Source: Fidelibacterota bacterium
GTDB taxonomy: Bacteria; Fidelibacterota; UBA2242; JAFGTP01
Direction: 5' to 3'
Assembly (NCBI GenBank): GCA_016934035.1
Contig: JAFGTP010000011.1
Coordinates: 60,486-124,485 of the forward strand
DNA: 64,000 bases
Shown here piece by piece: positions 41,800 to 55,829 of the stretch (positions are counted from its first letter, which is position 1; each line of letters opens with the position of its first letter). A model generated the notes under the pieces. It saw nothing but the letters and a program-made list of their open reading frames with translations, had not been told where the DNA came from and made no database searches. The position numbers and the translations under genes were made by a program.

Positions 41800-43728
41800 T
41801 CATTGGGCAGGTACAAACCGGGCTGCAAAACCGCCCCCTGGCGCCAGATGGATTTTCAGCAAATCACCGGCAGTGACTTCCTTTTTGGTTTGTTTAAAAT
41901 CCTCAGCATTTTTATCCGCATTTATTCCATCCTGGTAAATGATTGCTTGATATTTACCTTTACCCAGAAAATCAAGTTTGATATCAAAATCCCGAGCGGT
42001 CCAGTCGGTCATTGAACCAAGATAAAACTCCCGGCCGCTTTGCCGGACTGTGACGATATAATCGCCGACTTTTGCCTGCAGTACTATGGTGTCATCCCAC
42101 ACAGTGGGAACAGCCGATAAGAATTCCATACATGCTGGCTCGGCGTAATAATGTGATGGATTGTCGGCCAGCATTTGCAGGGGACTTCCGTAGACAATAT
42201 ACATGGCCAGTTGTTGACAGCGGGTGCCCAGAGTCATTGGTTTGGACCAAGTGGGATGGAAATTGGATTTGATTGTGTTTCTCATACCACCGGGAGTGTA
42301 ATCCATCGGTCCTGCTACATTGCGGGTAAAGGGCAGAATTAGTGCCCATTCCGGATTGGCCCAGTCACTCCATTTTGCCTGTTCCAGTCCGCGGACACCT
42401 TCGCGGGTGATGACATTGGGATAGGTACGCCGTAAACCAGCCGGTTTGTAGGAACCATGAAAATCCACTAACATTTTTCGCCTGGCGGCTTCCCGGGCTA
42501 TTTTTTCATAATACTGGACCATCCATTGGTCATCCCGTTGCATAAAGTCCACTTTGATGCCTTTGATGCCCCATTTTTCGAACTGGTCCAGGGCTTCATC
42601 TAGCTTGTCATCCAGTGCCTTCCAGGTGGTCCACAGAATCAGGCCAACGCCGGTTTGCTTACTGTAGCGCGACAGTTCGTTCATATCTACATCTGGATTG
42701 ACTTTCATCAGGTCTTTCAGGTCATACCAGCCTTCATCGAGGATAATGTACTCAAGACCATAGGTTGAGGCAAAATCCATGTAGTATTTGTAAGTAGCGG
42801 TATTGACGCCTGATTCGAAATCCACTCCCCTGATATTGAGTGCATTCCACCAGTCCCATGCAACTTTTCCGGGCCGGATCCAGTCCGTGTCTTTTAACCG
42901 GCATTCCCCGGCAAGTTGGTAAACCAGTTGTGATTCTGCGATTTCTTTGTCTTCACCGATGATCATCAGGCGCCAGGGGAATTTTCTTGTGCCCTCGGTT
43001 TTCGCCAGGAAGTTTTCGGTTTCAGTGATGATTACATCGCGGTCGCTGGTTTGTCGGGTGGTTTTGGGATATTTGGGAAAGATGGCTTTCAATCCGTTTT
43101 CTTTTCCTGTCAGATAAAAACCCGGATAGTCGAATAAGGCCGATTCTGAAATAAATATTTTAATATTATTGGATCCATCTATCAAAGTCGGTATGGAACA
43201 GAACTTTTGACCAATTTCTTCCAAAGACAGGTATTTGTATTCTCGTTCCTGGTGACTGTACATGCTTTCTTCTTCCGGGAACCAGAGATTGTAATTTGCC
43301 GGGAAATTGTATTCGATGGTTTCATTGACAATGGTCTGCTCCTCTTTCTGCTCAGTGACAAACCTGTAGGCAAAACCATGATTGTAGGCCCTGAATATCA
43401 GATTGAATTCATTAAAAAAAAGTGTCAATTCCCGGTAATGGTCCCGTATCTCTTTACTTTTTTCCCGAACAACAGGACGGAGGGTCATATCAATTTCATG
43501 GTTTTGTACCCGGCTTACGGTTGCGCCGGGTCCCAGTTGCCGGCTTGCAGTTTGCAGGGCAATTTGTGAAGGGTTTAAAATTTTTTGCTGGTTGTATGTT
43601 AATTCATAGGTAATGATTTTGTCTACGTTTACAATTGCTTCCAAAAAATTGTTCGGCGATGAAATTTTGTAAGAATTTCCCCATAAAAAACAAACGGTTG
43701 AAAGGAATATTAAGATCGATTTTTTCAT
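41800..43728 (-). CDS. Glycoside hydrolase family 97-like (alpha-glucosidase/alpha-galactosidase type)
   Basis: Signal peptide MKKSILIFLSTVCFLW (start at 43728). The N-terminus resembles the SusB-type GH97 N-domain. Central (beta/alpha)8-like region with the KVDFMQRDDQ motif. Confidence 0.6.
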   Translation of the reverse strand: MKKSILIFLSTVCFLWGNSYKISSPNNFLEAIVNVDKIITYELTYNQQKILNPSQIALQTASRQLGPGATVSRVQNHEIDMTLRPVVREKSKEIRDHYRELTLFFNEFNLIFRAYNHGFAYRFVTEQKEEQTIVNETIEYNFPANYNLWFPEEESMYSHQEREYKYLSLEEIGQKFCSIPTLIDGSNNIKIFISESALFDYPGFYLTGKENGLKAIFPKYPKTTRQTSDRDVIITETENFLAKTEGTRKFPWRLMIIGEDKEIAESQLVYQLAGECRLKDTDWIRPGKVAWDWWNALNIRGVDFESGVNTATYKYYMDFASTYGLEYIILDEGWYDLKDLMKVNPDVDMNELSRYSKQTGVGLILWTTWKALDDKLDEALDQFEKWGIKGIKVDFMQRDDQWMVQYYEKIAREAARRKMLVDFHGSYKPAGLRRTYPNVITREGVRGLEQAKWSDWANPEWALILPFTRNVAGPMDYTPGGMRNTIKSNFHPTWSKPMTLGTRCQQLAMYIVYGSPLQMLADNPSHYYAEPACMEFLSAVPTVWDDTIVLQAKVGDYIVTVRQSGREFYLGSMTDWTARDFDIKLDFLGKGKYQAIIYQDGINADKNAEDFKQTKKEVTAGDLLKIHLAPGGGFAARFVPAQ

Positions 43729-43930
43729 GATTTCCCTCCTTTGAATAATCCCTCTAAACGAGATTAATATATTTGAAGGAATCTGAAATAAAAAGTAATT
43801 TTTCATGCCTCATAAACAAAAACAGCTGCAAAAAAGCTGTTTATAATTTGTTTAAACAAAACAAACTCCAAACTAACATTACATTGCTTAATATTTTGGC
43901 ATGAGGATTTATTAACTAATTGGAGGTTTT

Positions 43931-54426: not shown

Positions 54427-55829
54427 GCAATAATCATGAAAAGGTATTAATTGTTGATGATAATCATGATACCCGCAGTAATATCGAAGAATTGTTAAGA
54501 TTATTTGATTTTGAAACCGATTCAGCTGCCAATGGCAGACAGGCCTTGGAAAAGGTCAGGACCTTCGATCCCAGTTGCCTGGTTTTGGACTTAAAACTAC
54601 CGGAAATTGACGGCTGGGGAGTGATGGAATCCCTCAAAAGAGAAATTGAAAACGGTCTCATTATTATCGTTATCACAGCCTTCGGTGATGTCTCTAGCGC
54701 TGTAAAAGCTGTTAAAGCCGGCGCCTACGATTTTATTGAAAAACCCTTTAACAACGAAGTGCTGCTCCTTTCCATAAACCGGGCCATCTCCAATTCAAAA
54801 GTCAAAAAGGAACTCAAAAAACTTAAAAGATCCATTGGGCAGTGTGGCAGGAGCGATGAAATTTTCGGAAAAAGCCCCGCAATAACAAAAATGCTGAAGC
54901 AACTGGAACCGATGGCCAAAACCAATATCTCGATTATGATCCATGGTGAAACCGGATCGGGAAAAGAAGTGGTGGCCAATTATATCCATTCCATAAGCGA
55001 AAGACATGATAAACCCTTTGTCACCGTGGATTGCGGCGCCATACCGGAAAACCTGATTGAATCAGAACTTTTCGGGTATGAAAAGGGGGCTTTCACCGGT
55101 GCTGTCAAAAGTACCATGGGGAAGTTTCAGGCAGCCCATGGCGGTACACTTTTTTTAGATGAAATTGGCAATCTGCCCCTGCAGCAACAACGGACCATCT
55201 TGCGGGCTGTGGAACAGAAGACCATCACGCCGGTGGGTTCCAACGAGGCCATTAAAGTTGATACTCGACTTTTCTGTGCAACCAACGATGATCTGGCCCA
55301 AAAAGTGTTCGAGGGGACTTTCAGGGAAGATCTGTTTTATCGAATATCAGAATTTGTGATTTACATTCCGCCACTGCGGCAGCGTCTGGAAGACTTTCCG
55401 GTTATTGTTAATAGTTTTATTGAGCAATACGGTGAAGAACTTAATTCAAAAATCCAGGGTATTACACATGAAGCCATGAAGGCCCTGAGACAGTTTAACT
55501 GGCCGGGCAATGTCCGTCAATTGAGAAATACAATCAGAAGGGCAATGGTACTGGCTGATGATGAAATAAAAGTTGAGCACCTGCAATTTCCCAGGCAGAT
55601 TACAAAAGGGATTGATTATGATAATATTATAAAAGAAATTCTCAACAGTGATCCACCTGTCAGAAATAAAATTCGGGAGGTCAATGAAATTATTGAAGCT
55701 AAAGTCCTTGAAGAATTAATGATTATAAATAATAATAATATATCAAAGGTATCCAATTTGTTCGGAACCGACCGAAAATCAATCTACGCCAAACTGGAAC
55801 ACCTTGGTTTAAATGAAAAATTAAAATAA
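54420..55829 (+). CDS. NtrC-family sigma-54-dependent response regulator (REC + AAA+ + Fis HTH)
   Basis: Receiver VLIVDDNHD…[14 protein letters not shown]+ domain with [23 protein letters not shown] and R-finger motifs. C-terminal HTH. Start overlaps the kinase stop by 7 nt. Confidence 0.85.

Follow-up and report, generated by a model that had tools for sequence, protein, structure and literature searches.

We describe here a locus within a 64-kb stretch of contig JAFGTP010000011.1 (assembly GCA_016934035.1; the whole stretch is referred to as the window), in which a TonB-dependent receptor gene and a beta-propeller phytase gene lie close to a two-component system composed of a large propeller-sensor kinase and an NtrC-type regulator. 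A preliminary description of this DNA had proposed that these genes form one system for the scavenging of phytate or organophosphates under control of the two-component pair. All open reading frames (ORFs) named there were recovered at the same coordinates, and their domain assignments hold against profile matches; start codons were corrected for the GH97, esterase and EEP genes only. On the plus strand the locus comprises the receptor (43931-46729), the phytase (46816-47904), a carboxylesterase-type alpha/beta hydrolase (48018-48755, with the corrected ATG at 48018), an EEP-superfamily hydrolase sorted by the type IX secretion system (T9SS; 48884-50155, corrected ATG at 48884), a sensor histidine kinase of 1408 amino acids (50200-54426), the NtrC-type sigma-54 enhancer-binding response regulator (54420-55829) and the mutually overlapping genes obg and dprA (55844-57918). 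The divergent neighbor described earlier is indeed a GH97 glycoside hydrolase gene, alpha-galactosidase-like, on the minus strand (41800-43728). Its ORF spans 41800-43806, with the likely true start at 43728 according to the public gene call; the product matches PF10566 with 362 bits and has its best solved relative in the alpha-galactosidase BtGH97b (3a24, E=1e-168). An Rfam scan of the whole window returned one tRNA and nothing else.

The phytase matches PF02333 with 289 bits over residues 20-360 (cut-off 21) and aligns over its full length with the Bacillus phytase TS-Phy (1poo; residues 25-360 to 7-345, E=7e-71). Beta-propeller phytases are recognized by the signatures D-A-[ATE]-D-D-P-A-[ILV]-W and N-N-[VI]-D-[ILV]-R-[YDQ], and both occur here, as DAADDPAIW (residues 44-52) and NNIDVRY (93-99). 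Judged by its sequence, the protein is a canonical beta-propeller phytase, and the earlier call is confirmed by profile, alignment and motifs alike. It has the full-length alignment and the signature motifs in common with TS-Phy/PhyC of Bacillus amyloliquefaciens (1poo, 2poo, 1h6l), but differs from it in its diverged sequence, in an N-terminus that reads as a signal peptide or as lipoprotein-like, and in its partnership with an outer-membrane receptor in a diderm.

The receptor displays the architecture CarbopepD_reg, Plug and barrel, and scores 508 bits against TIGR01782 (cut-off 310). Five phytase loci were examined: the window, the syntenic locus L029, a 5.8-kb contig of ERR13166144, L033 (Gaoshiqia sediminis) and L034. 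In all five, the gene that directly precedes the phytase, in the same orientation, encodes a receptor of this architecture, and the flanks of L033 and L034 are unrelated to those of the window, carrying no EEP, esterase or NtrC-type regulator gene. Full-length identity of the window receptor amounts to 82% with the receptor of L029, 50% with that of L033 and 31% with that of L034; with the two other receptors of the window it is 24-33%, within the N-terminal domains only. By these comparisons the phytase-linked receptors form one orthologous group, distinct from other receptors. Because the pair recurs in every one of the five loci, two of them amid unrelated flanks, we regard receptor and phytase as a module.

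This module is a self-contained phytate-acquisition pair of a known kind, as the preliminary description had already recognized. TonB-dependent transporters adjoining a phytase have been reported in marine Alpha- and Gammaproteobacteria (PMC3400609), and in Flavobacterium johnsoniae the transporter Fjoh_1368 and the phytase Fjoh_1367 are co-localized and strongly induced by low phosphate (PMC8115612). The window pair resembles the F. johnsoniae and marine pairs in gene order, in receptor architecture, in its canonical PF02333 phytase and in the way the pair travels among unrelated flanks. Unlike the F. johnsoniae pair, it belongs to a Marinimicrobia metagenome-assembled genome, and its induction by low phosphate is suggested by a Pho-box-like repeat only; unlike the known pairs in general, it is set in a backbone with genes for a sigma-54 two-component system.

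The existence of this backbone became apparent when the window proteins were mapped onto related contigs, in which the GH97 gene is divergent from a series of esterase, EEP, kinase, regulator, obg and dprA genes. A scan of metagenome contigs with the EEP alignment had yielded 20 loci, the informative ones being L009 and L013, in addition to the distant L010-L012; the corresponding scan of genome contigs with the kinase gave only generic HisKA/HATPase matches (Planctomycetota and one cyanobacterium) and no orthologs. In L004, L013 and L005 the GH97 gene (minus strand) is followed directly by esterase and EEP, without receptor and phytase, and in L005 the EEP gene is succeeded by kinase, regulator, obg, dprA, a PorZ-like gene and a GWxTD gene. 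The order in L029 is GH97, receptor, phytase, a 646-residue ORF, esterase, EEP, kinase and regulator; L002, L003 and L009 represent the L029 lineage on contigs that are cut upstream. Three lineages have the receptor-phytase cassette and two (three contigs) lack it, always with respect to the same intergenic site. The block from EEP through kinase, regulator, obg, dprA and PorZ-like to GWxTD is kept whole in L002 and L005, and the obg-dprA pair, conserved in both, is the housekeeping continuation of the co-oriented block that includes kinase and regulator. In the window, the PorZ-like beta-propeller ORF (weak match to PF21544) and the GWxTD-domain ORF occupy 57915-60813 on the plus strand; they overlap dprA and each other, are kept downstream of the regulator in L002 and L005, and as T9SS-associated genes share the co-oriented block with the T9SS-sorted EEP.

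Window, L029 and L004 are about equidistant from one another (GH97 70-73%, esterase 69-73%, EEP 63-67% identity), with L005 as the outgroup. The cassette has diverged between window and L029 (receptor 82%, phytase 65%) to a degree similar to that of its neighbors, no direct or inverted repeats flank it, and it shows no clear GC anomaly. For these reasons, its distribution fits a single gain or loss by descent rather than a recent transfer. Beyond this clade, EEP homologs at 41-50% identity have different neighbors, without an adjoining esterase, kinase or regulator; the neighborhoods of these distant homologs are heterogeneous, and no pho genes are found among them. Two observations concern L029 itself. 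The 646-residue ORF (10763-12703 of L029, plus strand) follows the phytase terminator and precedes the esterase gene; it matches no Pfam family and is absent from the window. Moreover, L029 (GCA_013166765.1, JABKBV010000021.1) is a 47-kb contig whose deposited name is that of an archaeon, Methanococcoides sp. SA1; its genes include a TonB-dependent receptor and T9SS cargo in synteny with the Marinimicrobia window, and it is almost certainly a bacterial contaminant or mis-binned contig in the Methanococcoides assembly.

The transcriptional signals subdivide the locus further. A 14-bp hairpin followed by T-rich sequence is located between receptor and phytase (46757-46787, plus strand), in the same place as in L029, and is probably an attenuator or partial terminator. 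Since only about 30 nt separate this hairpin from the phytase ATG, the phytase would probably be transcribed by read-through. Downstream of the phytase, a hairpin with a T-run resembling an intrinsic terminator (47942-47978, plus strand) is conserved in L029, and a further terminator-like hairpin with a T-run after the esterase (about 48760-48788, plus strand) is conserved in L029, L002, L004 and L013. Two terminators and the esterase gene hence stand between the phytate cassette and the kinase/regulator genes. The arrangement from the EEP gene onward is much tighter: the gap between EEP and kinase measures 45 nt and contains no hairpin, kinase and regulator overlap by 7 nt, the regulator is separated from obg by 15 nt, and the obg, dprA, PorZ-like and GWxTD genes overlap one another. 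EEP, kinase, regulator and obg look like one operon, and it is this tight spacing with its overlaps that places kinase and regulator inside a long co-oriented block led by the EEP gene.

The esterase, a backbone gene product of 245 residues with the N-terminus MKKILGIFMITIFLSQC, has a lipoprotein-like signal and is probably a lipoprotein. Its best match in the PDB is a carboxylesterase of T. maritima (3doh, 4e-40), and LC-Est1C is matched as well; by its relatives it is to be classed as a carboxylesterase, not as a phosphoesterase. Of the earlier proposal of an esterase lipoprotein within an organophosphate-scavenging locus, the alpha/beta hydrolase with a lipoprotein-like signal stands, and an organophosphate role is not supported by these carboxylesterase relatives.

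The EEP protein (423 residues with a signal peptide; PF03372 44 bits) carries a C-terminal T9SS domain (TIGR04183 25.6, cut-off 23), and PF18962 is found in 43 of its 46 homologs. The catalytic residues N27, E64, D190/N192, D251 and D307-H308 are invariant in all 46, so that its description as a T9SS-sorted EEP-family enzyme is well founded; the AF2 model has a pLDDT of 87. The family has more than 4500 matches across the FCB group, and some homologs bear a lamin-tail domain, which occurs on extracellular nucleases. With respect to substrate, Foldseek comparison with the PDB retrieved nocturnin, Bacteroides EEPs of unknown function, TDP2, Bt3783 and CCR4, all at 13-18% identity, and a profile search retrieved nocturnin (1.5e-8), TDP2, DNase gamma, CNOT6L, CdtB and ExoIII. 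The best NCBIfam matches are the MnuA and ExeM/NucH nuclease families, all below cut-off, and a single-sequence search against the PDB gave nothing significant. No inositol 5-phosphatase appeared among the profile or Foldseek matches; with 26.2, the match to PF22669 falls short of the cut-off (27), and just 4 of the 46 homologs match that model. From these relatives and from the model, the protein is most likely a secreted nuclease or phosphodiesterase. It shares the fold, the full catalytic motif set and secretion with secreted EEP nucleases of the ExeM/NucH and MnuA type, and some of its close homologs have a lamin tail, as found in secreted EEP nucleases and phosphodiesterases; unlike the named nucleases, it falls below every named-family cut-off and ends in a T9SS sorting domain. 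The suggested link to inositol phosphates is not sustained by nearest relatives that are nucleases and phosphodiesterases, together with a PF22669 match below cut-off. The preliminary description had conceded that its proposal would fail if the EEP were a generic nuclease unrelated to inositol phosphates, and this applies in a weaker form, the enzyme being a generic EEP without a specific inositol-phosphate tie.

The kinase and its regulator correspond to what had been described, a propeller-sensor kinase of 1408 residues and an overlapping NtrC-type regulator, on the basis of domain profiles and the 7-nt overlap. A signal peptide is followed in the kinase by a periplasmic Reg_prop/Y_Y_Y region up to approximately residue 750, a transmembrane segment (752-782), and GAF, PAS, HisKA and HATPase domains; the regulator consists of a REC domain (PF00072, D57), an AAA+ domain (PF00158, 225 bits) with the GAFTGA motif, and a C-terminal helix-turn-helix (HTH). 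Reg_prop/Y_Y_Y sensors are the sensor class of the glycan-sensing hybrid two-component systems (HTCS) of Bacteroides. The window kinase shares with these the periplasmic sensor class, the single transmembrane segment and the position beside outer-membrane uptake genes, but it has no fused REC or AraC (HTH_18) output, and instead combines a classical GAF/PAS kinase with a separate NtrC-type sigma-54 activator. When the N-terminal 800 residues of the kinase were searched for homologs, all that was retrieved were generic propeller sensors (20-27% identity) joined to many kinds of output; the search missed the kinase itself and its known orthologs and is uninformative on the ligand.

The sensor domain has diverged much more quickly than the sequences around it. 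Between window and L029, identity is 37% in the periplasmic domain of the kinase, 66% in the kinase core, 76% in the regulator and 82% in the receptor. The window sensor domain (50200-52450) is 37% identical to that of L029, 30% to that of L005 and about 30% to that of L004, whose sensor is about 30% identical to all others compared; across the same three loci, the cognate regulator retains 69-76% and the kinase core 57-66% identity to the window. Such fast divergence of the sensor suggests a shifting ligand specificity or relaxed constraint. A sensor dedicated to the invariant ligand of a receptor conserved at 82% would be expected to be better conserved, a point that is suggestive but not decisive. 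Separately, a shared DNA-binding specificity of this regulator and a fused sigma-54 activator encoded elsewhere in the window was considered and rejected: their AAA+ domains are 43% identical, and their HTH regions do not align.

If the regulator acted on the cassette, a sigma-54 promoter should be recognizable before one of its genes, and the leader of the receptor gene had been named as the place to search. A scan of the window with the consensus TGGCAC-N5-TTGC, allowing up to two mismatches, gave 35 matches against 45 expected, which is no enrichment, and none in the intergenic regions of the locus. The relaxed pattern TGG[CT]A[CT]-N5-TT[GT] matches 11 times in the window, and five of these sites, confined to about 7% of the sequence, are intergenic and point toward a following gene. 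Four of the five, all with TTG at -12, belong to the uptake locus beside the fused propeller/sigma-54 activator. This other receptor locus served as a positive control, as it shows clear sigma-54-like promoters with upstream inverted repeats; therefore, such signals are recognizable in this genome. In the phytase locus, the leader of the receptor gene offers a single partial site, TGGCAT-GAGGA-TTTA (43897-43911, plus strand), with a good -24 element and a -12 element that lacks G or GC. The start implied by this defective site, at about 43923, would fall roughly 8 nt before the receptor ATG and inside the Shine-Dalgarno sequence GGAGG, and the site has no counterpart in L029; stricter and looser patterns applied to the window and to five orthologous loci brought up nothing but this defective site for the locus. 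No -24/-12 site precedes esterase, EEP or GH97 in L002, L004, L005, L013 or L029, and overall there is no conserved sigma-54 promoter before receptor, phytase, esterase, EEP or GH97 in any locus. Equally, the TTCTGAAATATCAGAA-family inverted repeat of the other sigma-54 locus is absent from the intergenic regions of the phytase locus, and the small-RNA-like seed found there has no counterpart in it.

The promoter region of the receptor contains a signal of a different type. A tandem direct repeat with an 11-bp period, GTTTATA-ATTT-GTTTAAA (43839-43856, plus strand), ends 75 nt before the receptor ATG, and L029 has the orthologous repeat GTTTACA-TGCT-GTTTACA (6548-6565 of L029), ending 66 nt before its ATG; the two have the core GCTGTTTAYA in common. 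The exact pattern GTTTAHA-N4-GTTTAHA occurs twice in the 64-kb window, one occurrence being 43839-43856; among fetched loci totaling 359 kb, its sole occurrence is the orthologous site of L029. Tandem 7-mers with 4-nt spacing are the binding format of the OmpR/PhoB family, as in the Pho box of Escherichia coli (CTGTCAT-N4-CTGTCAT), and the PhoP box of Bacillus subtilis is a TT[ATC]ACA repeat. By analogy, the repeat supports a putative Pho-type control of the cassette, as far as the two sequences go. The start of the direct repeats is overlapped by a palindrome with perfect 9-bp arms, AAACAGCTG-N5-CAGCTGTTT (43820-43842, in the GH97/receptor intergenic region, without strand), which is specific to the window and absent from L029.

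Altogether, we consider it reasonably probable that the locus consists of two juxtaposed units and not of one regulon, a phytate cassette being placed in a Marinimicrobia backbone whose sigma-54 two-component system cannot be shown to have a tie to it. Within the first unit (43839-47978), the dedicated outer-membrane receptor would bind or import phytate, either as such or complexed with metal, the exported Ca-dependent beta-propeller phytase would release phosphate, and the strong terminator would end the cassette. Since its promoter region carries the conserved 11-bp-period repeat of OmpR/PhoB type, we propose that phosphate starvation most likely switches the cassette on, as in the Flavobacterium pair. 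The second unit would be the backbone of the clade, with the divergent GH97 gene, a monocistronic carboxylesterase gene and the block from EEP, kinase, regulator, obg and dprA to the PorZ-like and GWxTD genes, whose kinase and regulator may sense a periplasmic ligand and activate sigma-54 promoters outside this locus. Regulatory coupling of kinase and regulator to the cassette, the core of the preliminary description, is not supported: the backbone occurs without cassette (L004, L013, L005) and the cassette without backbone (L033, L034), there is no conserved -24/-12 promoter, and between window and L029 the sensor is conserved at 37% as opposed to 82% for the receptor. Several points weigh against the two-unit reading. 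Neither of the distant loci L033 and L034 carries the repeat, the window contains neither phoBR nor pst genes, and the Pho-box interpretation draws on two sequences and an analogy. A good -24 box, TTTTGGCAT, lies 20 nt upstream of the Shine-Dalgarno sequence of the receptor and is similar to its counterparts in the likely sigma-54 promoters at other positions of the window. The cassette adjoins the backbone in three lineages, so its linkage is not unique to the window genome, and fold matches at 13-18% identity throughout leave the substrate assigned to the EEP presumptive.

One alternative, which we hold to be unlikely, is that the backbone constitutes a glycan cluster, comprising the GH97 alpha-galactosidase, a deacetylase-type esterase, an EEP that would dephosphorylate sugar phosphates or glycans in the manner of Bacteroides Bt3783, and an HTCS-like propeller sensor for an oligosaccharide, beside which the cassette has come to lie by chance. 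GH97 and esterase are divergent neighbors in every cassette-free lineage, carboxyl and feruloyl esterases are the best matches of the esterase, the kinase belongs to the sensor class of the Bacteroides glycan-sensing HTCS, and the mannose-6-phosphatase Bt3783 is among the fold matches of the EEP. However, Bt3783 ranks no better than nucleases in that search, the backbone contains no SusC/D pair or further carbohydrate-active enzymes, no sigma-54 promoter precedes GH97 or esterase, and the position of obg and dprA within 15 nt of the regulator looks like inherited gene order.

Slightly less credence still is given to the single regulon, in which the propeller kinase would detect phytate or another extracellular organophosphate and the regulator would drive sigma-54 promoters of receptor/phytase, esterase and EEP. 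The genes stand side by side not only in the window but also in L029 and on the ERR13166144 contig, although this 5.8-kb contig ends in the esterase gene and the kinase and regulator lie outside it. The -24-like box TGGCAT at 43897 speaks for this reading, as does the fused propeller/sigma-54 activator that stands beside receptors with sigma-54-like promoters and shows that such wiring exists in the organism. Yet the -12 element at 43897 reads TTTA, whereas all four better sites of the window have TTG, the implied start is buried in the Shine-Dalgarno sequence, the site is missing from L029, and none precedes esterase or EEP in any locus. The independent occurrence of backbone and cassette, the contrast between the 37% identity of the sensor and the 82% of the receptor, the terminators that isolate the cassette, and the lack of an upstream inverted repeat in common with the sigma-54 locus of the window all speak against it as well.

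We find it rather improbable that the adjacency is altogether meaningless, with kinase and regulator governing envelope, T9SS or stress genes elsewhere and the EEP acting as a housekeeping secreted nuclease; the block from EEP to GWxTD conserved whole in L002 and L005 and the quite different neighborhoods of the distant EEP homologs (41-50% identity) agree with such a scenario, but it largely overlaps with the two-unit reading. Just as improbable is a combined scheme in which kinase and regulator are a split version of the fused activator, HTCS-like sigma-54 activators generally drive the uptake loci of the phylum, and the cassette is driven via the 43897 site, perhaps with additional PhoB-type input at the repeat, which, if true, would make the cassette a sigma-54-wired organophosphate uptake system.

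With the two-unit reading, the known pairing of TonB-dependent receptor and beta-propeller phytase gains an example from Marinimicrobia. By this finding, phytate may serve some members of this uncultured phylum of ocean and sediment as a source of phosphorus, close relatives being without the cassette, which is useful for reading phosphorus-cycling potential from metagenomes. No new regulatory principle is implied, as the apparent sigma-54 link is most simply a matter of inherited gene order.

The other sigma-54 uptake locus of the window (19340-36976) is more unusual than the phytase locus. It begins 30 kb upstream with the fused activator (19340-22825, plus strand), a single polypeptide of 1161 residues that combines periplasmic Reg_prop propellers and Y_Y_Y, one transmembrane segment, PF00158 (234 bits) and HTH_8, and thus resembles an HTCS sensor in which a sigma-54 output replaces kinase, REC and AraC. 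No sigma-54 fusion was found among the top 120 relatives of the propeller sensor of the kinase. Downstream follow a SusC-like gene (24584-27484), a SusD-like gene (27494-28741) and a second TonB receptor gene (29427-32633), and after the latter an ORF of 1077 residues without Pfam match and a PorV-like gene, the locus extending to 36976. The four sigma-54-like promoters of the type TGG[CT]A[CT]-N5-TTG (23779-23793, 24470-24484, 28846-28860 and 29383-29397, plus strand) are all intergenic and face downstream, and two of them stand in front of the genes for the SusC-like protein and the second receptor. For the inverted repeat TTCTGAAATATCAGAA / TTCGGAAATTTCGGAA, 17 matches were counted against 2 expected, with clusters at 23626, 24325 and 29219-29297; these clusters lie approximately 100-150 nt upstream, in the position of enhancer-binding sites.

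The same locus contains a candidate sigma-54-dependent small RNA in two copies (about 23779-23875 and 28846-28935, plus strand). Each unit is composed of a TGGCAT-N5-TTGT promoter, an identical unpaired 15-mer, GTACCATACTAATCC, and a terminator hairpin with a T-run, and neither matches an Rfam family. Complementary to this 15-mer is the sequence GGATTA[AG]TGTAAGGGG, which occurs in the leaders of both the SusC-like gene and the second receptor gene. For the single-stranded part of copy B, pairing with the leader of the gene at 29427 is predicted at -19.6 kcal/mol, a value that 0 of 500 shuffled sequences equaled.

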